Shown here: positions 5,789 to 58,805 of the stretch, piece after piece
Position numbering within the stretch: the stretch's first letter is position 1
Layout: every line of letters starts with the position of its first letter
Source of the DNA: Bacillota bacterium
GTDB lineage: Bacteria > Bacillota > Proteinivoracia > UBA4975
Direction: 5' to 3'
Length of the DNA stretch: 64,000 bases
Assembly (NCBI GenBank): GCA_050949165.1
Contig: JBMNFF010000001.1
Coordinates: forward strand, 1,059,185-1,123,184
Made by a program: the position numbers and the translations under genes
The notes under the pieces: generated by a model
Told to the model about the DNA's origin: nothing
Database searches by the model: none
Seen by the model: the letters and a program-made list of their open reading frames with translations, nothing else

Positions 5789-6622
5789 CTACTCCACCTC
5801 CAATTCTCTAAGGGCCTGTTCGGCCTGTTCCCGGCTGGGTGCGCTGCCGTGCCAGCCCGCCTGATTCTCCATAAAGGACACGCCCTTGCCCTTAATTGTC
5901 CGGGCAATAATTACCGAGGGCTTGCCGGCGGCGGCTTTGGCTGCATCCACTGCAGCGAAGATCTGAGCGAAGTCATGGCCGTCGATTTCCTGCACATGCC
6001 AGCCGAAGGCTTCAAACTTGTCCTTGATGGGCGCCACCTCCATGACGGAGCTGACGGCGCCGTCGATCTGCAAGTTGTTATAGTCGACAAAGGCGATGAC
6101 ATTGTCCAGTTTATAATGGGCCGTGGTCATGGCTGCCTCCCAGACCTGGCCTTCCTGGAGCTCGCCGTCCCCCAAGAGCACGTAGATCCGGCGCTCATCC
6201 TGTCCATCCAGCCTGGCGGCCAGAGCCATGCCGTTGGCCGCGGAAAGCCCTTGTCCCAGGGAGCCGGTGGTCATATCCACGCCAGGGGTGAGCTTGCGGT
6301 CGGGATGCCCTTGGAGCCTGCTGTCAATTTTGCGAAAGGTGAGGAGCTCCTCCTTGGCAAAAAAGCCCCTTTCCGCCAAAGCGGAGTAGTACACCGGCGT
6401 TGCGTGGCCTTTGCTGAGGACGAAAATATCCCGCTCCTGCCAGCGGGGCCGGGTGGGATCCACCTTCATGATTTTGAAGTACAGGGCGGCGAGAATTTCC
6501 ACCGCCGATAGCGACCCGCCGGGATGACCCGACGCCGCTTCGGTTACCATGGAGACGATGTGACGGCGCATGCGCTGGGCAACAGCCTTCAGATTTGCAT
6601 ATCCTTCCACTCTCTTCTTCAC
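5789..6622 (-). CDS. transketolase, N-terminal subunit
   Basis: TPP-binding N-terminal half (GHPGGSLS, GDGELQEG); stop 1 nt before the C-terminal subunit start. Confidence 0.9.
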   Translation of the reverse strand: MKKRVEGYANLKAVAQRMRRHIVSMVTEAASGHPGGSLSAVEILAALYFKIMKVDPTRPRWQERDIFVLSKGHATPVYYSALAERGFFAKEELLTFRKIDSRLQGHPDRKLTPGVDMTTGSLGQGLSAANGMALAARLDGQDERRIYVLLGDGELQEGQVWEAAMTTAHYKLDNVIAFVDYNNLQIDGAVSSVMEVAPIKDKFEAFGWHVQEIDGHDFAQIFAAVDAAKAAAGKPSVIIARTIKGKGVSFMENQAGWHGSAPSREQAEQALRELEVE

Positions 6623-7479
6623 CTCTTTATTATATTTAGCGGTGCAAAGCCCATGCCCTGCACTTCGTGAACCTCGGTGACGATTACGAAGGCGTCGCTG
6701 TCTTGCTCCGCTACCAATGCCTTGAGTTTGGAGATTTCGCTGGCGCTGACCACCACCAGGAGGACTTCCCGCTCCCGGCCGCTCCAGGCGCCGCGACCGT
6801 CCAGAAGAGTCGCTCCCCGCTGGAGCTGCTCCAACACGGCGTTGGCAATGGCATTGCTGGCTTCGCTGATGATAAAGGCCGCCTTGGCCCGCCTGAGCCC
6901 CTGCTGGACCAGGTCGATGACCCAGATGGACACAATCAGGGCGATGAGGGCGTACATGGCCAGCTCGGCGTCAAAGACTATGCCCGCCAGGGCCACCACC
7001 AGAAAATCCACCCCCAGGAGGGACTGGCCGACGGTGAGGCCGGTAAATCTGTGGATTATCTGGGCGGCCAGGGCCGTGCCGCCGGTGGTGCCCTGGGCGC
7101 GAAAGACTATTCCCACCCCGACGCCCAGAGTAATGCCGCCGTAAATGGCTGCCAGCAAGAGATCCTCGGTCACGGGACCATAGCCCTCGGTGAGGGCGAC
7201 AAAGGCCGGCAGCAACAGGGACCCCACCAGGGTATTGATTCCAAACCGGGGCCCCAGGACAAACCAGCCCAGGATAAACAAGGGAATGTTGATGGCCAGC
7301 AAGAGGATGCTGACGGGAATGCCCAAAAGATGGGTCAAGACCACCGCAAGCCCGCCTGCGCCGCCCGGAGCGATCTGGTTGGGCACCAGGAGCAGGTTCA
7401 GGGCCAGGGCCGTCACCAGGCAGCCCAGGGCGATTCCCAAGATATTCTTGAGTCGGAACCCTCGAAACAGAGTCTTCAT
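6619..7479 (-). CDS. YitT-family membrane protein (DUF161/DUF2179-like)
   Basis: polytopic hydrophobic N-terminal domain plus soluble C-terminal domain; family call by eye. Confidence 0.6.
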   Translation of the reverse strand: MKTLFRGFRLKNILGIALGCLVTALALNLLLVPNQIAPGGAGGLAVVLTHLLGIPVSILLLAINIPLFILGWFVLGPRFGINTLVGSLLLPAFVALTEGYGPVTEDLLLAAIYGGITLGVGVGIVFRAQGTTGGTALAAQIIHRFTGLTVGQSLLGVDFLVVALAGIVFDAELAMYALIALIVSIWVIDLVQQGLRRAKAAFIISEASNAIANAVLEQLQRGATLLDGRGAWSGREREVLLVVVSASEISKLKALVAEQDSDAFVIVTEVHEVQGMGFAPLNIIKR

Positions 7480-16171: not shown

Positions 16172-16482
16172 TAAAACTTACCTCCAAAAATGATGTAGCT
16201 TGTAAAGCTCGATTCATCCTACCATAGTAAAAAGGCCAATGTCAATTTTACCGAAAAAACTGTCAATGAAGTCCGACAGCTGACCTGGTCTTTGCCCCCA
16301 CACTCGCCTGCTGGAGGGTTCGCGCTAACTACTGCCTCTCTCGGTTTTCCCGGCAGGACTTACTTCTAAGCCGCACCATGCTCGGCAGTTGGTTTTTTTT
16401 GCTGCCTTACGTGGGTCGTTTCGCCTGCGACTGGCCTCGACTTTCAACCACAGACCTGTCAGACATCATTAGAGTAACGTAT

Positions 16483-22144: not shown

Positions 22145-22266
22145 AAAAAACCCCTTCAGGTTTGAAAGGGTTCGTCACCCCTCATCTGCGGGAATTGGCA
22201 CCGTGCCCCGTGGCCGGTTGCCGGGTTTCATCGGGCCCGCCCCTCCACCTCTCTCGATAAGAGCTC
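22145..22266 (-). ncRNA. SAM-I (S-box) riboswitch with intrinsic terminator, leader of metK
   Basis: minus-strand sequence CTCTTATCGAGAGAGGTGGAGGGGCGGGCCCGATGAAACCCGGCAACC...GGTGCCAATTCC...GCAGA matches S-box consensus; followed by hairpin and TTTTTT. Confidence 0.85.
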
Positions 22267-51779: not shown

Positions 51780-53702
51780 TTACGCCAAGGCCTTTTCTAT
51801 TTCCGCCATGGCCCTTTCCTCCAGGTCGCAGCATTGCCGGACCAAGGCGAGGACCGCCGGAGCCTTGCCAGGGTCAAAGGCCTGGCCCCCGGGCCCGGTA
51901 AAGGGGACCAAGCGGGTTATCTCCTGGTAATTCGCTGCCACCTGGCGGTAGAGGTCAATTGTACCCTCCAGGCCCTTTAGTTCACCGGACCGGGCGGCAA
52001 CATACTCCAGGTATTTGGCGATGCAGGCCTTGGAGTCAGCATAGACGTTGAGATTATAGGCCAGGCCGAAGGGGTCGTAATCTCCCCGTTCCAAAGTGCT
52101 TATGAGATTGGCATAGGCCTTTCTGCCGCAGGCATACCCGGGAGTCGAGTGCTGCTCTTTATTCCACTCCCTCAAGCCGTATTCCAGGGAATCCCGATAG
52201 ATCTTCTCCGGGTCGACCTCCACCCTGCCCTTGAGAATCTGCACAAACAGGTATGGAACCTCGGATATGCCCAGGTTGCCATAGCTCAAGGGATCCGGAT
52301 CTGAGTTGAGGCAATCTTGAACAAACAAAACTTCATCGCCGTCATCATAACCGTCAATCAGGCCAAATTCCAGGAGACCTGTCGGCGCCCAGGTGATCGC
52401 CGGCACCCCCCTGGCTATGGATGCTTTGATCTTTGCCAGGGCATCCTCCTGAATCATATGGAAAGTGTTGAGCCTGGGGTCCCTGAAGACCAGGACTATT
52501 TCGCTGTGCACGCCAATCCTGTCCAGCATGGTGAAATGCTCCATCCCCCAGTCGTACACCGTCACCGAGCTGGGGCAGGCCGTTTCGTGCACGATGAAGT
52601 GAAAGGCCATCCCCGTCATGCCCATGAGTTTATAGATCTCGTCCTGCCACCACTCCACCTTGCGCAAAGCGCCGTCCACGCTGGCGATATATGAGTTCCA
52701 GGTCATTCCCATCTTCGCACCCAGTCGCATTGCCGCATCAGTACCTCCTTTAACAGGTTGTGGCTCCATTATAATCGACGGGGTAGGACATAAAGTGTCG
52801 CACCCCTCAGGCATATTTGCCAAAATCATCTTTTGTAGCCTGGAACAGAAGCGCTGCCGTAACCAGCGGGGTGAAAGAAGGGTAAATTGTTCTACCCCGG
52901 CTATAATTGCCGCCAGAAATTTGCTGGAATTTGTGAATTCCACTCTGTAGACCTGAGGCTCTCCAGAGGGAGATACCCGCAGCCCCGCCTTTCTCAACTG
53001 ATTCTCCCCCTGGGTTTTTACAAGGGCCACATAAGGCCTGCGGTAGTTAAAGTCATCTTTATATTCCTCCGGATCAAACCAGGGAACGATGGTAAACTCC
53101 TCGTCCCGAACCAGGGCGCCTCTTATCCGCTCCAGTTTAAAGATGCGGACCTCCCCGCGGAGTTCACAATACCCGACCACATAATTGCCATCCCCCTGAC
53201 AGAAGAATTTATAGGGGCAGATGATCCTGCGGGATTTTACCCCCGCGGCGCTGACATACTCTATCTCAACTTTATGCCTCGATTGCATGGCTTTGCTGAG
53301 GAGCTTATATGCCCTGACCTCCCGGGGACCGGGATTGATAATTGGTAAATTCCTCTCGCCTTCGCAGTTTCCTTCCCCGCCCAAGCGGGCAAAGAGTTGG
53401 GCCAACTGCCGGGCCTGTCCACCTTCCCTGTTTCGGTAGTGGAAGGCCAGGTAATCCAGGGTGGCCTTTTCTTCTGCCGAAATAAAATTGGCCGGCAGGA
53501 TAAAAGCTCCCCCTCGGTAAAAATACCCGTTGTTCCTGGGACAATATGCAACGGGCGCCCCCAGGGAGTAGCGCAAGTACTCAATATCCCGGGAAGCCTG
53601 GCGGGTAGAAATCTCAAATTCCTCGGCAATAATTCGGCAATTGGGATACCTGCCATGGCGAATCTGCTGGTCAATCCAGAGTATCCTGTGTAAGCTGCTC
53701 AT
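51780..53702 (-). CDS. HTH-WYL domain regulator fused to about 340-aa uncharacterised C-terminal domain
   Basis: N-terminal HTH (NCRIIAEEFEISTRQASRDIEYL), WYL-type beta domain (RRIICPYKFFCQGDGNYVVGYCELRGEVRIFKLERI), continuous 640-aa ORF; ATG with GGGGGTGA RBS. Confidence 0.65.
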   Translation of the reverse strand: MSSLHRILWIDQQIRHGRYPNCRIIAEEFEISTRQASRDIEYLRYSLGAPVAYCPRNNGYFYRGGAFILPANFISAEEKATLDYLAFHYRNREGGQARQLAQLFARLGGEGNCEGERNLPIINPGPREVRAYKLLSKAMQSRHKVEIEYVSAAGVKSRRIICPYKFFCQGDGNYVVGYCELRGEVRIFKLERIRGALVRDEEFTIVPWFDPEEYKDDFNYRRPYVALVKTQGENQLRKAGLRVSPSGEPQVYRVEFTNSSKFLAAIIAGVEQFTLLSPRWLRQRFCSRLQKMILANMPEGCDTLCPTPSIIMEPQPVKGGTDAAMRLGAKMGMTWNSYIASVDGALRKVEWWQDEIYKLMGMTGMAFHFIVHETACPSSVTVYDWGMEHFTMLDRIGVHSEIVLVFRDPRLNTFHMIQEDALAKIKASIARGVPAITWAPTGLLEFGLIDGYDDGDEVLFVQDCLNSDPDPLSYGNLGISEVPYLFVQILKGRVEVDPEKIYRDSLEYGLREWNKEQHSTPGYACGRKAYANLISTLERGDYDPFGLAYNLNVYADSKACIAKYLEYVAARSGELKGLEGTIDLYRQVAANYQEITRLVPFTGPGGQAFDPGKAPAVLALVRQCCDLEERAMAEIEKALA

Positions 53703-53941: not shown

Positions 53942-54178
53942 ATGAAAAAAATTACCTTGTTAGGAGTTGAAGGGTGCCCCACCTGCGCCCGCCTGGATGC
54001 AAAGGTTCAGGAGGCCGTGGCCGCCCTGGCCGCCCCGGTAGAGGTGGAGAAGATCGCCGATCCCGCGAAAATAATGGAAATCAATGCCGGCGGTCTGCCC
54101 GCCGTGCTCGTCGACGGGGAAGTCAAGGCCCTGCGCCGGGTCCCGGAAGTAAAGGAGCTGGTAGAATGGCTGCAGTAA
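53942..54178 (+). CDS. thioredoxin-fold small redox protein (CPTC active-site motif)
   Basis: 78 aa, GCPTC motif near N-terminus typical of glutaredoxin/thioredoxin-like proteins. Confidence 0.6.
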   Translation: MKKITLLGVEGCPTCARLDAKVQEAVAALAAPVEVEKIADPAKIMEINAGGLPAVLVDGEVKALRRVPEVKELVEWLQ

Positions 54179-54399
54179 AGGTAACCGCCCGTCTGGAACA
54201 ACTGTCCTGCCCCAGCTGCGCCGACATGATTGTCAATGTAGTCCGGAAAATCAAGGGCGTAGAGGAAGCGGAAGTACGCTACACCACCAGCAAGCTGCTG
54301 GTCACCTATGACGACGCTGTTGTAGCCTGGGATGAAATAGAAGATACCGTGACCAAGCTGGGTTACGCCGTTACCGGCAAGAGCGAGAGGAGGGATTAG
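54166..54399 (+). CDS. heavy-metal-associated (HMA) domain metallochaperone
   Basis: 77 aa from MAAVKV; CPSC metal-binding motif in ferredoxin-like fold context; AAGGAG RBS. Confidence 0.65.
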   Translation: MAAVKVTARLEQLSCPSCADMIVNVVRKIKGVEEAEVRYTTSKLLVTYDDAVVAWDEIEDTVTKLGYAVTGKSERRD

Positions 54400-54400
54400 C

Positions 54401-56287
54401 ATGGCCGTGGCCACAAACCGCATGCCCAAGCCCACCGGCCTTTGGCTGAGGAAAAATGAAAAGTTCCTGATACTGCTGGTTTCCGGCGCCCTCATCATCC
54501 TGGGCTGGCTGGCGGGATACCTCTCTCCCCAAGCCAGGGCCATCCTCATGGTGGCTGCGGCAATTGTGGCCGGCTACCGCATCGCCCAGACTGCCTGGTA
54601 CGCCCTCCGGGCCCGGGTGGTCAGCATCCAGCTCCTGGTCACCATCGCCGCCGTGGGTGGAGTCCTCATCGGCGACCAGTGGGAAGCCGCCGCCGTCACC
54701 TTCCTCTTTGCCCTGGGCAACTACCTGGAAGCCCGGACCCTGAACAAGACCCGGGATGCCATTCAGCAGCTCATGAGCATGGCCCCGGCCACAGCCGTGG
54801 TCCTCCGGGACGGCCGGGAAGTGGAGGTAGACCCCGATGAAGTTCGGAAGGGAGAGATCGTCCTGGCCCGCTCCGGGACCAAAATCCCCGTAGACGGCAT
54901 CGTCGTCAAGGGCAGCGCCTCGGTCAACCAGGCCGCCATCACCGGCGAGTCGGTGCCGGTGGAGCTCACCCCAGGCGGCCAGGTCTTCAGCAGCACCCTG
55001 GTGGAGGCTGGCTACCTGGAGATCCAAGCCCAGCGCGTGGGCGAGGACACCACCTTCGCCCGCATCCTCCACATGGTGGAAGAAGCCCAGGAGCGCAAGG
55101 CCCCCACCCAGAAGTTCATCGAGAAGTTTGCCCGCTGGTACACCCCTGCCATCATTGGCCTGGCCATTGTCACAGGCCTCGTCACCGGCAACCTGCACAT
55201 GGCTCTGACCCTCTTGGTCATCGGCTGCCCCGGCGCCCTGGTCATCTCCACCCCCATCTCCATGGTGGCCGGCATCGGCAACGCCGCCAAGAACGGCGTC
55301 CTGGTCAAGGGCGGCGAATTCCTGGAAAAGGCCGGCAAAGTCACCCTGGTGGCCTTTGACAAGACCGGCACCCTCACAGTGGGCCGACCCGAGGTCACCG
55401 CCGTCCTGGCCCTGGTGGGCAGCCAAGAAGATCTGCTCCGCCAGGTGGCGGCAGTGGAGAAGGGCTCGGAGCATCACATCGGCCGGGCCATAGTGCGCCG
55501 GGCCGAAAACCTGACCCTGCCCCAGGCCTCAGGCATCGAGGTCTTCCCCGGCGGCGGCATCTCCGGCCGGGTAGAGGCTGAAGAAATCCTGGTGGGCAAT
55601 CCCCGCCTCCTGGCCGAGAGGGGCGTCGGCCTGCCGGAACAGGTCCAGGATTGGATGGCTACCCGGGAGGAGCGGGGCGAAACGGCAGTGCCGGTGGCCG
55701 TCGACGGCCAGGTTCGCGGAGCAATTGCCATCGCCGATACCCTGCGCCCCGAGGCCAGAGAAGCAATCGCCGTCCTGCGCCGGTCCGGCAAAAAGGTGGT
55801 AATGCTGACGGGGGATAATCCCCGCACCGCCGCGACAATTGCCGCCGAACTGGGCCTGGACGACGTCAAGGCCAATCTCCTGCCCCAGGACAAGGTCAAG
55901 GCCATTCAAGACTACCGCCGCCAGGGCCACATGGTGGCCATGGTGGGAGACGGCATCAATGACACCCCCGCCCTGGCCGAGGCAGACCTGGGCGTAGCCA
56001 TGGGAGCTGCCGGCACCGATGCCGCCATCGAGACCGCCGACCTCACCCTGATGAGCGATAACCTCAACCGGCTGGTCCGGGCCCTGCACCTGGGCAAAGC
56101 CACCCTGAGCAATATCCGCCAGAACGTCGCCTTCGCCGTGGCAGTGGTCCTCCTCCTGGTCCTGGGCGTCCTGGGCCAGAAGGTCTTCTTGGCCACAGGT
56201 ATGCTGGCCCACGAAGCCAGCGTCATGCTGGTCATCCTCAACGCCATGCGGCTGCGAGTGTGGAAGCCCAAAAAGAACCCGCGTTAA
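54401..56287 (+). CDS. heavy-metal translocating P1B-type ATPase
   Basis: DKTGTLT phosphorylation motif, GDGINDTPAL, TGES actuator motif; TM6 motif reads CPG rather than CPC; no N-terminal HMA domain. Confidence 0.9.
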   Translation: MAVATNRMPKPTGLWLRKNEKFLILLVSGALIILGWLAGYLSPQARAILMVAAAIVAGYRIAQTAWYALRARVVSIQLLVTIAAVGGVLIGDQWEAAAVTFLFALGNYLEARTLNKTRDAIQQLMSMAPATAVVLRDGREVEVDPDEVRKGEIVLARSGTKIPVDGIVVKGSASVNQAAITGESVPVELTPGGQVFSSTLVEAGYLEIQAQRVGEDTTFARILHMVEEAQERKAPTQKFIEKFARWYTPAIIGLAIVTGLVTGNLHMALTLLVIGCPGALVISTPISMVAGIGNAAKNGVLVKGGEFLEKAGKVTLVAFDKTGTLTVGRPEVTAVLALVGSQEDLLRQVAAVEKGSEHHIGRAIVRRAENLTLPQASGIEVFPGGGISGRVEAEEILVGNPRLLAERGVGLPEQVQDWMATREERGETAVPVAVDGQVRGAIAIADTLRPEAREAIAVLRRSGKKVVMLTGDNPRTAATIAAELGLDDVKANLLPQDKVKAIQDYRRQGHMVAMVGDGINDTPALAEADLGVAMGAAGTDAAIETADLTLMSDNLNRLVRALHLGKATLSNIRQNVAFAVAVVLLLVLGVLGQKVFLATGMLAHEASVMLVILNAMRLRVWKPKKNPR

Positions 56288-56307
56288 GAGCCGCGGGTTC
56301 TTTGCTT
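56273..56307 (+). terminator. intrinsic terminator after P1B-ATPase
   Basis: aagaacccgcg-ttaagagc-cgcgggttctt hairpin followed by TTTGCTT. Confidence 0.7.
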
Positions 56308-56582
56308 ATGGGATAACCCGCTTCCTTCTACATGCTAAGAATAATGACGCCCTGCATGGTGAAAATAGCCTGACGGGTTGACATCCCACCAGCGACGGCA
56401 TGCCAACGGGTAGAGAATGACTATACTCATTCCCGGACCGAACTGCCACCCGCGCCGCTGCGTCACATTTATTGAGCAGAAGCCAGCTGACCTGTTACCC
56501 GTTTGCCAAGCCGATGCATTACCTTGGTAAACCTCTATATAAATATATTAAAATAACTTATTAAAGAAATTAAGGTAAGGGC

Positions 56583-56611
56583 TTGCAAAATAAAATTGAA
56601 CCCTGTATAAT
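56583..56611 (+). promoter_or_regulatory. sigma-70-type promoter TTGCAA-N17-TATAAT with AT-rich upstream tract
   Basis: -35 at 56583-56588, -10 at 56606-56611, AT-rich UP-like region 56530-56580. Confidence 0.6.
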
Positions 56612-56664
56612 TATGGCGGAAGGTAGCGGACATACCAGCGAGACGAAATAAGGAGGTGAATTCC

Positions 56665-56766
56665 ATGAAAGAAACCTTCCCCTATCGCCCCACCGGCCTC
56701 TCCACCGGCAAGGGCAAACCCCCAACCCGTCCCCCCTTTCCCATCCAACTGCTTCCACCCCGGTAA
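56665..56766 (+). CDS. small peptide, 33 aa (MKETFPYRPTGLSTGKGKPPTRPPFPIQLLPPR)
   Basis: ATG 7 nt after AAGGAGGTG; paralogous to next ORF; below ORF-track size cutoff. Confidence 0.5.
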   Translation: MKETFPYRPTGLSTGKGKPPTRPPFPIQLLPPR

Positions 56767-56793
56767 ACCAAAGCCATAAAAGGAGGTAAAACC

Positions 56794-56886
56794 ATGAACA
56801 GAACTTTCCCCTATCTGTCCACCGGCCTTTCCAGCAAGAGGAATCCGGCGCCGCGGCCAGTTAATCTGCCCCCGCGTCACTGCTAA
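56794..56886 (+). CDS. small peptide, 30 aa (MNRTFPYLSTGLSSKRNPAPRPVNLPPRHC)
   Basis: ATG 8 nt after AAAGGAGG; shares TFPY-xx-TGLS and LPPR with preceding ORF. Confidence 0.5.
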   Translation: MNRTFPYLSTGLSSKRNPAPRPVNLPPRHC

Positions 56887-56909
56887 AAACCCACTGGGAG
56901 GTGAATTCA

Positions 56910-56972
56910 ATGAAAAGAAAAGTTGCCGTCCGCATCCGCCACGACGTCGCCTTGCCGGGAAAGATGCGCTGA
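56910..56972 (+). CDS. small basic ORF, 20 aa (MKRKVAVRIRHDVALPGKMR)
   Basis: ATG 6 nt after GGGAGGTG; unrelated in sequence to the two preceding peptides. Confidence 0.3.
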   Translation: MKRKVAVRIRHDVALPGKMR

Positions 56973-57147
56973 TGAAAACACGCGGAAACATGGTTATCGG
57001 CACCGCAAGACACCGCAATACAGGATAAACGGGCTGTTCCCCGGTAAGGGAAGAGCCCGTTTGCGTTATATAAAAAGCGTGGCCTTGTCCCCCCGAGGCG
57101 ATAACAGATATAATTAACACAAGCGATTTTAAGAAGGAGGAAGAAAA

Positions 57148-57873
57148 ATGAAGAATACCGGTCTCGAGTTCCTGGAGCTGACCAAATACCCTCACCTCAG
57201 CGAGTCGGATCAGGAAAAGGACCTGCCCTGCCCCCAGTTGGAGACCCCGGAGAGCGGTGAACAGATAGACCTGCCTGGCCCCGAGAGCATCAGCCTCGCC
57301 GAAATCAGCATTCAGACGGCCATCAACAACCGGCGCAGCCTGCGCAAATTCAGCACCACTCCGCTGAGCATGGAAGAGCTGTCCTGGCTGCTCTGGGCCA
57401 CCCAGGGGGTCAAGGAAAAGCTGTCCCATGCCACCTTGCGCACCGTCCCCTCGGCGGGAGCCCGCCACCCCTTTGATACATACCTGGCAGTGGCCAATGT
57501 CTCCGGCTTGAAGCCCGGCCTCTACCGCTACCTGGCCCTGACCCACAAACTGGTCCTGATCAGGGAAGACAGTCAAATCGGGGAGAAAGTGGCAACTGCC
57601 TGCATCAAGCAGAAGTGGATTGCCAAGGCGGCGGCGACCTTTTTCTGGGCAGCCGTTCCCTACCGCACCACCTGGCGTTACAGCGAGCGGGGCTGGCGCT
57701 ACATCTTCCTGGATGCCGGCCACATCTGCCAGAACCTCTACCTGGCCTGCGAGGCCGTCGCCGCCGGCTGTTGTGCCGTCGACGCCTTCGACGACGACGC
57801 CCTCAACCAACTGCTGGGCCTGGACGGCAAAGAGCGGTTTGTTCTCTATGCCGCGCCTGTGGGCCATAAATAA
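57148..57873 (+). CDS. SagB-type dehydrogenase (nitroreductase-fold FMN enzyme)
   Basis: RRSLRKF, LLWATQG, PSAGARHP, GLYRY, RYSERGWRYIFLDAGHICQNLYLA, LGLDG motifs; ATG with AAGGAGG RBS. Confidence 0.7.
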   Translation: MKNTGLEFLELTKYPHLSESDQEKDLPCPQLETPESGEQIDLPGPESISLAEISIQTAINNRRSLRKFSTTPLSMEELSWLLWATQGVKEKLSHATLRTVPSAGARHPFDTYLAVANVSGLKPGLYRYLALTHKLVLIREDSQIGEKVATACIKQKWIAKAAATFFWAAVPYRTTWRYSERGWRYIFLDAGHICQNLYLACEAVAAGCCAVDAFDDDALNQLLGLDGKERFVLYAAPVGHK

Positions 57874-57908: not shown

Positions 57909-58316
57909 GTGGGTGTTATTTGCGCTTATTTTCCGGATTATGAGTCCGGACCGGGGAAGCTGCCCGCTACAGGGCCCGGTCTGACGATCTCAGTGCATGG
58001 CGCCATTAGAGGCTGTCCGGACTTGATTCCTGTCACCCGAAACCAATCCCGACCCAAGCACCTGGGCTCCCGATCTGCTACGCCACAGCCGCGCATAAGC
58101 TGGCGACACAGCAATACCGGGTAACCCGTCCTCATCACCCCTGCTTCCAAAATAGTTTCATTTACTATGATGCCCTAAAATGGAAAAGAGTTCAACCCCC
58201 GGCAGGATTTTTTTTCTGCTCCCCGTACAATATTATACGCGGAAAACCCATAGTTTTCAGGGGTTGAAGGCCAAATATTTTATTTTTTTCTAAAGCATGA
58301 AGAGTTTAAATGGATA

Positions 58317-58805
58317 TTACCTTCTCTTCAAATACAGGGCCAGGCCTCCGACCACAGCCAATACCGCCAGACCGCCTGCCGCCCAGATGAATGCCCCATT
58401 GGAATTGGAAATAGGCGCCGCCTCAATCGGTTCGGCATCATCCAGCTCTACATCCAGGTCCTCGGCGCCGGACAGGATTGTAAAGATGGGGTTCTCCGCC
58501 TGGGCATCGGCCTCGGCCTGGACCAGCTGCTGATATTCTTCCTCCCCCAGGATGACCTCCCGGGGCACATCGACATGGACGGTAACCGACTGGTCGTCCT
58601 TGACCAGGACGATGTTGAAGACCTCCCGGCCCAGAGCGACAAAATCCTGGACCCAGCTTTCCGAAACCTCGTAGCCGGGATATTCCTCCAGGGCCAGCCC
58701 ATGCAGGCGATTCTGCACCTCTTCGGGCAATATCCGCAAGACGGCGGAGGCTGGGGCGACGGCCAGCACCAGGATAATAGCGGTAAGAACCAACAAGCGT
58801 TTCAT
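58317..58805 (-). CDS. secreted protein with N-terminal signal peptide and C-terminal hydrophobic anchor plus KRR tail
   Basis: start MKRLLVLTAIIL with GAAGGAGG RBS; acidic central region; C-terminus ...GGLAVLAVVGGLALYLKRR. Confidence 0.6.
   Translation of the reverse strand: MKRLLVLTAIILVLAVAPASAVLRILPEEVQNRLHGLALEEYPGYEVSESWVQDFVALGREVFNIVLVKDDQSVTVHVDVPREVILGEEEYQQLVQAEADAQAENPIFTILSGAEDLDVELDDAEPIEAAPISNSNGAFIWAAGGLAVLAVVGGLALYLKRR

Follow-up and report, generated by a model that had tools for sequence, protein, structure and literature searches.

A candidate micro-operon for two paralogous Pro-rich peptides and a conserved 20-mer in an uncultured clade of Bacillota

Organization of the micro-operon

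The window, meaning the whole stretch of 64,000 nucleotides of Bacillota DNA that was analysed, carries three short ORFs in tandem on the plus strand. ORF1 (56665..56766) encodes a Pro-rich basic peptide of 33 aa, MKETFPYRPTGLSTGKGKPPTRPPFPIQLLPPR, with a pI of 11.1 and a Pro content of 27%, ORF2 (56794..56886) encodes its 30-aa paralog, MNRTFPYLSTGLSSKRNPAPRPVNLPPRHC, and ORF3 (56910..56972) encodes an Arg/Lys-rich peptide of 20 aa, MKRKVAVRIRHDVALPGKMR, with a pI of 12. The presence of two tandem paralogous ORFs of 30-33 aa had been put forward by the initial annotation and was borne out with exact coordinates: the alignment of ORF1 with ORF2 contains 17 identical positions, and a 42-nt DNA block is 81% identical between the two copies, which are located 129 nt apart. 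A degenerate DNA pattern for TFPYxxTGL[S] occurred twice in the window against 0.00 occurrences expected from 100 shuffles. All four LPPR codons differ synonymously between ORF1 and ORF2; LPPR by itself is not special, as translating the GC-rich window in six frames yields the string more than 25 times. The initial annotation was silent on ORF3 and on the promoter-like site and terminator hairpin that flank the three ORFs.

A sigma-A-type promoter (TTGCAA-17 nt-TATAAT, 56583..56611, plus strand) was predicted from the sequence and from a promoter alignment of three species, comprising that of the window and those of two contigs termed L024 and L027 (see below). The -35 element at the matching position reads TTGCAA in L027 and TTGCAT in L024, and the UP-element-like A/T-rich stretch upstream of it (56530..56582, plus strand) is partly conserved in both. 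Each ORF has a near-consensus Shine-Dalgarno site on the plus strand ending 6 nt before the ATG, namely AAGGAGGTG for ORF1 (56650..56658), AAGGAGGT for ORF2 (56780..56787) and GGGAGGTG for ORF3 (56896..56903), and all three sites are conserved in L024 and L027 together with the ATG starts. The stop-to-start gaps within the operon are 24-27 nt. Downstream of ORF3, an intrinsic terminator (57027..57072, plus strand) was predicted with a 15-bp G+C-rich stem (57027-57041 paired with 57048-57062) followed by a T-rich tail, and the stem sequence is nearly invariant across the three species. Another hairpin overlaps the stop codon of the upstream P-type ATPase gene and looks like the terminator of that gene. 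Because of its own promoter and terminator, the ATPase hairpin upstream and the nitroreductase promoter downstream, the micro-operon appears to be transcribed independently as a three-cistron RNA of ~450 nt, counted from promoter to terminator, and its signals suggest that it is probably strongly expressed.

Apart from the terminator, the whole transcript folded no better than shuffled sequence (z = -0.38), and an Rfam search of the operon region returned no family match. Local structure was predicted around ORF3, the Shine-Dalgarno site of which could base-pair with codons 5-8 of this ORF in each of the three species. The segment GTCCGCATCCG inside ORF3 (56922-56942) is invariant even at synonymous sites in the three-species alignment; its predicted pairing partners are the Shine-Dalgarno site of ORF3 and a GCGGA string in the 3'UTR. 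The helix between ORF3 and the 3'UTR (3'UTR side 56973-57000) shows one compensatory change, in L027. Owing to the invariant synonymous sites and this single compensatory pair, RNA-level functions beside coding are possible, and ORF3 may be constrained as RNA in addition to being constrained as coding sequence.

Genomic neighbourhood

The micro-operon lies directly behind a metal-efflux operon (53942-56287, plus strand) encoding a thioredoxin-like protein of the MTH895/ArsE type, a stand-alone HMA metallochaperone and a P-type ATPase of 628 aa that itself lacks an N-terminal HMA domain. At the other end of this metal-efflux operon, a 640-aa protein with HTH and WYL domains is encoded on the minus strand (51780-53702), and its C-terminal ~400 residues had no Pfam family match. 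The 640-aa WYL protein was found at all three loci with the micro-operon and at none of the four related loci without it, a count that ignores phylogeny. This co-occurrence and the constant site downstream of the metal-efflux operon are weak leads to function. A metal-binding role, as suggested by the ATPase neighbourhood, was rejected for the peptides, which have no conserved Cys or His.

Downstream of the terminator, a 241-aa nitroreductase (57148-57873, plus strand) is preceded by a promoter-like site recognized from the sequence (57085-57114, plus strand). This protein passes the model of the SagB family peptide dehydrogenase (TIGR03605) with 142.5 bits against a cutoff of 78.4, and its family counts over 7,700 stand-alone members. 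The SagB family name is misleading here, since the nitroreductase is stand-alone, widespread, has its own promoter and lacks a YcaO partner. In the related contig L013, a nitroreductase of 86% identity is present and the operon is absent; homology with the window starts at 57083, right after the terminator and right before the nitroreductase promoter, which is kept. The dehydrogenase is likewise present without the peptides in L016, and in L024 other genes part the nitroreductase from the operon. Judging from sequence comparison with these relatives, the micro-operon is independent of the downstream nitroreductase. The Pfam list contained no YcaO, radical-SAM, lanthionine or peptidase/exporter genes within +/-8 kb of the operon, and Pfam analysis of the L024 and L027 neighbourhoods revealed no YcaO and no conserved exporter.

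The gene order of ATPase, operon and nitroreductase is shared by the window and L027. In L024, the operon is located between a HepT fragment and a convergent MACPF gene. Contigs L021/22, L023 and L025/26 carry a minus-strand cluster of three genes (unknown, HTH_26 and membrane protein) and no operon, and in L028/29 the MACPF gene directly follows the ATPase. The spacer between the ATPase and the nitroreductase (56288-57147 in the window, with the corresponding sites in L013, L016 and L021-L029) appears as a hot spot of gene turnover, the contents of which in relatives are a HepT fragment, a MACPF/CW_binding_2 protein, a two-component system or the HTH_26 three-gene cluster. Some relatives also carry MazE and Transposase_31 genes upstream of the ATPase operon.

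Homolog searches and orthologous operons

Searches by similarity or motif returned no homologs. A profile of the ORF1/ORF2 alignment gave no hits among 1.84 billion representative proteins, a search in which a 35-position profile has low power, and an artificial concatenate of ORF1 and ORF2 gave eight word-sharing candidates among 5.8 billion proteins, none with E <= 10. The operon peptides had no match in plasmid and phage collections or in Pfam, NCBIfam, PADLOC and PDB, and a literature text search with the peptide strings found nothing relevant. A related-locus search of genome contigs produced 47 pattern matches, none of which was confirmed. The strict DNA pattern for M-x-x-TFPY-x-x-TGL[S] matched once in genome contigs, with a stop codon directly after the ATG, four times in metagenome contigs, without a Shine-Dalgarno site or a Pro-rich tail, and twice in viral contigs, antisense inside a 358-aa gene; all of these matches are due to chance. 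The same holds for the five matches to the ORF3 pattern in viral contigs, all of which are inside longer frames.

Orthologs were found by a synteny walk from the neighbouring P-type ATPase, using contigs with ATPase homologs of 76-86% identity. In two of these contigs, L024 and L027, the ATPase gene is closely followed by the same operon. The L024 locus, with an ATPase 82% identical to that of the window, encodes the ORF1-type peptide MDPCFPYIPQGLSTKKNNPAPRPQLPPHMYLPR (6704-6805), the ORF2-type peptide MRNTYPYIPKGLSTEKSTQAPRPQLELPLRCY (6828-6926) and the ORF3 peptide MKKKIAVRIRHDVSLPGKRR. The L027 locus, with an ATPase of 78% identity, encodes MSKTFPWISFGLSNKKPVPRPVCPPHLFLPR (ORF1-type, 6199-6294), MYRLFPYLPVQSRNITPASRPHLNFPIRSW (ORF2-type, 6320-6412) and MKKESVAVRIRHDVALPGKRR (ORF3). 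The strict pattern had missed these orthologs because they read CFPYIPQGL, TYPYIPKGL or TFPWISFGL. The motif TFPY-xx-TGLS highlighted by the initial annotation holds for both copies in the window, but the exact string is species-specific, and the check proposed there, a search for this motif in short ORFs elsewhere, returned only chance matches. At this locus an exact-motif search fails whereas a synteny-guided search succeeds.

The operon is known from three species, all belonging to one uncultured clade. Further contigs of the window species (L001-L007 and L015), which stem from several metagenomes, are 99.8-100% identical over the operon region and are therefore uninformative on selection. 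The number of predicted paralogs is variable between species, because L024 alone has an additional upstream ORF0 (6607-6687), MDKEFRQLVTEKVRRPELPPFLTLPH, with its own Shine-Dalgarno site and a family-like tail, L027 has only a start at the same place, and the window species has no ORF0 part. The start in L027 (6139-6198) is an ATG with a Shine-Dalgarno site and reads in frame into ORF1 without a stop. ORF1-type copies end with ...LP[P]R-stop, while ORF2-type copies have two further residues after the Arg (HC, CY or SW). By this comparison of the copies, the ORF1/ORF2 duplication predates the separation of the species. The operon-bearing taxa were not monophyletic in a crude neighbour-joining tree of the ATPase, implying losses or transfers. 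Only two of the nine ORFs in the three species had been annotated by gene callers, none of the nine matches a curated family, and genes of 20-33 codons routinely escape annotation.

Evidence for protein coding

All three ORFs are intact in the three species, with lengths of 33, 33 and 31 aa for ORF1, 30, 32 and 30 aa for ORF2 and 20, 20 and 21 aa for ORF3. Nucleotide identity across species is 54-59% in ORF1 and ORF2 and 75-80% in ORF3, which is the best conserved part of the operon with an amino-acid identity of 80-85%. All coding indels in the three-species alignment are multiples of three. The ORF1 and ORF2 orthologs were detected by tblastn with E values of 1e-5 to 1e-9, whereas blastn found nothing in the same part.

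Substitutions were counted by codon position in a MAFFT nucleotide alignment made without protein guidance. The fractions of differing sites at positions 1, 2 and 3 were 0.39, 0.33 and 0.62 for ORF1, 0.40, 0.35 and 0.60 for ORF2, and 0.10, 0.13 and 0.48 for ORF3, compared with 0.44, 0.67 and 0.51 for the 5'UTR and 0.48, 0.50 and 0.42 for the 3'UTR. An excess at the third position is seen in each ORF but in neither UTR. NG86 estimates of dN/dS from protein-guided alignments, which cover only 20-33 codons each, were 0.08-0.11 for ORF3 and 0.19-0.56 for ORF1 and ORF2, with dS saturated.

The comparison demonstrates that all three species have retained the three ORFs and that these change in the manner of protein-coding sequence; they are very probably real translated genes. 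The earlier proposal that ORF1 and ORF2 are genuine genes under selection is upheld by the ORFs, starts and Shine-Dalgarno sites kept in two other species and by the codon periodicity. On this comparative basis, ORF1-ORF3 constitute a new small-protein family, so far confined to one uncultured clade. Comparative evidence alone reveals protein-level selection on three tiny ORFs moving as one unit, and the operon offers a candidate with defined motifs, promoter and terminator for small-protein work in an uncultured clade.

Properties of the peptides

The family consensus of the Pro-rich peptides is M-x-x-[TCL]-[FY]-P-[YW]-x-x-x-G-L-S-x-x-K..P-x-P-R-P..Φ-P-x-R, and a looser family motif reads M-x-x-x-[FY]-P-[YW]..G-L-S..P-R-P..Φ-P-x-R. 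Three blocks are conserved in the ORF1-type and ORF2-type peptides, namely [FY]-P-[YW]..G-L-S, P-R-P and Φ-P-x-R. The P-x-R block is conserved and the terminal residues are variable, as the ORF2-type copies end with RHC, RCY or RSW. PP dipeptides occur in ORF1 of all three species and are absent from two ORF2-type copies.

The ORF1-type and ORF2-type peptides contain 16-27% Pro. The pI values across the peptides are 9.5-12, with the exception of the non-conserved ORF0 of L024 (8.4), and the GRAVY values of -0.2 to -0.9 mark the peptides as hydrophilic. Neither a signal peptide nor a hydrophobic segment was detected in the operon peptides, and comparison with type I toxins and membrane small proteins, including KdpF, MgtR and MgtS, found no hydrophobic transmembrane stretch in the sequences. 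A Cys/Ser/Thr-rich core is missing as well; in the alignment, the region after the N-terminal block is rich in Pro, Arg and Lys, and the C-terminus is conserved. AlphaFold predicted no secondary structure for ORF1 (pTM 0.14). A possible resemblance between ORF3 and the N-terminal part of ribosomal protein S21, and between ORF1 or ORF2 and L34, was unsupported by Pfam and NCBIfam scans.

Comparison with known systems

In layout, the nearest known systems are the leaderless small-ORF operons of Bacillota, including psm-alpha1-4 of S. aureus, aurABCD of aureocin A70, garvicin KS and bacin A1-A4. Like the micro-operon, they carry several paralogous ORFs of 20-35 codons in tandem on one short transcript, with a separate Shine-Dalgarno site for each ORF, lack a leader or signal peptide, and vary in copy number between strains or species. 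The products of leaderless operons are amphipathic, helical, Lys/Trp-rich and membrane-active peptides accompanied by dedicated ABC exporter and immunity genes. In contrast, the micro-operon peptides are hydrophilic and Pro-rich (16-27%) with no predicted helix and no conserved exporter nearby, and are paired with an unrelated, strongly conserved 20-mer. The micro-operon lacks the defining features of leaderless operons, the amphipathic helix and the exporter or immunity gene; among the tandem small-peptide operons known from Bacillota it represents an additional, non-helical and Pro-rich type.

Leader and arrest peptides such as TnaC, SpeFL, MgtL/MgtP and those of the SecM-type RAPP group are similar in that they are 17-35 aa long and have conserved blocks set apart from one another, Pro and Arg close to the C-terminus, a strong Shine-Dalgarno site and a downstream terminator hairpin. 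They control a downstream structural gene, whereas the micro-operon ends at a conserved terminator, its next neighbour differs between species, and the C-terminal residues of its peptides are not invariant.

The likeness to TOMM-type RiPP clusters, which comprise precursors, a SagB dehydrogenase and a YcaO cyclodehydratase, consists of short tandem peptides beside a protein that matches the SagB model. Unlike TOMM clusters, the micro-operon has no YcaO or docking protein and no Cys/Ser/Thr-rich core, and the dehydrogenase is separately transcribed, unlinked in L024 and present without peptides in L013 and L016.

The peptides resemble animal proline-rich antimicrobial peptides (PrAMPs; apidaecin, oncocin, drosocin, Bac7 and Tur1A) in being short, cationic and Pro-rich with P-R-P and aromatic-x-P elements. 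Local alignment scores against PrAMP sequences were not above those of composition-matched shuffles given 63 tests. The other suggestion of the initial annotation, Pro-rich antimicrobial or regulatory peptides, may still apply but gains no support from these scores. Unlike animal PrAMPs, the micro-operon peptides would be made inside the bacterium without an export signal.

Proposed function and alternative explanations

We consider it somewhat probable that, as a whole, the products act in trans as free, disordered cytoplasmic peptides that dock onto a partner via short linear motifs. Their free and disordered state is suggested by the lack of a signal peptide, hydrophobic segment, Cys/Ser/Thr-rich core or predicted fold, and the mode of docking by the three short blocks that are kept. 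The ORF1 and ORF2 peptides would bind a folded protein or an RNA/ribosome partner through these three conserved motifs, and ORF3 would be their obligatory companion. Coupled translation of ORF1 and ORF2 with ORF3 is probable in view of the 24-27 nt gaps and of the ORF3 Shine-Dalgarno site lying in a predicted hairpin.

Alternatively, ORF1 and ORF2 could be cis-acting regulatory ORFs, i.e. Pro-rich sensor or arrest peptides like TnaC, SpeFL and MgtL, which appears unlikely. It is equally unlikely that their translation, depending on EF-P, prolyl-tRNA or a ligand, sets ORF3 translation or transcript stability with the peptides as by-products. Such a role would suit a chain of 30-33 aa that lies wholly within the ribosomal tunnel at termination, the three spaced blocks including a C-terminal Pro-x-Arg, the PP dipeptides of ORF1 in all three species, and the close ORF spacing with a predicted sequestration of the ORF3 Shine-Dalgarno site in a hairpin. 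However, no larger regulated gene lies downstream, given the conserved terminator and the convergent orientation of the following gene in L024, and an attenuation leader is contradicted by the nitroreductase promoter being kept where the operon is absent. Moreover, neither the C-terminal residues nor the stop codons show strict conservation, two ORF2-type copies lack PP, and a series of two or three paralogous sensors would be an unusual arrangement. A role mainly as a regulatory or dual-function RNA, with the ORFs secondary, is very unlikely, and so is its specific form in which C-rich seeds (UUCCCC and CCCGUCC) pair with the Shine-Dalgarno regions of target mRNAs. The short transcript, strong promoter, highly conserved terminator, recurrence of C-rich motifs in all ORFs, some invariant synonymous sites and one compensatory pair in the ORF3/3'UTR helix would agree with it, but codon periodicity is clear in the three ORFs and absent from the UTRs, indels preserve the frame, protein similarity is detectable where blastn fails, and neither the folding relative to shuffled sequence nor Rfam points to a structured RNA.

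Modified (RiPP) or exported precursors, processed by the neighbouring SagB-type dehydrogenase or by enzymes whose genes lie elsewhere, would explain the tandem paralogous short ORFs and the match of the downstream 241-aa protein to TIGR03605, and a variant of the same idea, a multi-peptide leaderless bacteriocin, draws on the layout shared with garvicin KS and bacin A1-A4. Such precursors are distinctly unlikely, as YcaO, radical-SAM, lanthionine and peptidase/exporter genes are missing within +/-8 kb, and the nitroreductase, from a family whose stand-alone members exceed 7,700, has its own promoter conserved in a relative without the operon and is unlinked in L024. In addition, both peptide ends are conserved, Cys, Ser and Thr are scarce, and amphipathic Lys/Trp-rich helices are absent. 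The layout of a recognition sequence plus a variable core, as the initial annotation had read the pair, is accordingly at odds with peptides conserved at both ends and with a neighbourhood in which no maturase is conserved beside the operon and the SagB-type nitroreductase forms a separate transcription unit whose linkage is broken in relatives. That the ORFs are chance products of an intergenic spacer is effectively refuted: GC-rich DNA does give many spurious Pro/Arg-rich ORFs, LPPR is common off-frame and database homologs were not found, but three species, at 54-59% nucleotide identity, retain the ORFs together with their start codons and Shine-Dalgarno sites and show signs of purifying selection.

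Apart from the favoured reading as free docking peptides, a more specific idea, which must be regarded as highly doubtful, is that the products are lineage-specific leaderless Pro-rich peptides acting on the translation machinery, bound in or near the ribosomal exit tunnel. Their action would be in cis, as nascent chains, or in trans, as with animal PrAMPs; they would be co-produced with the Arg-rich 20-mer, and might be controlled together with, or sensed by, the WYL regulator. If true, they would represent a bacterial endogenous counterpart of proline-rich antimicrobial peptides.

Other features of the window

A 26-codon ORF at 58310-58390 on the plus strand, MDITFSSNTGPGLRPQPIPPDRLPPR, has a look-alike arrangement TF..TG.GL..LPPR. 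It overlaps a 209-aa minus-strand gene and has no Shine-Dalgarno site, and was judged to be a chance product of GC-rich off-frame translation. Another ORF of 418 codons (56611-57867, minus strand) runs antisense across the micro-operon and the nitroreductase gene and is spurious, since it is not conserved in relatives, where it is interrupted by 3-6 stops; one gene caller annotated a 151-aa piece of it in L006. Elsewhere in the window, on the minus strand, a full-length raiA RNA motif (16271-16464, Rfam RF03072, 182 bits) and a SAM-I riboswitch (22179-22263, RF00162, 71 bits) were recognized.
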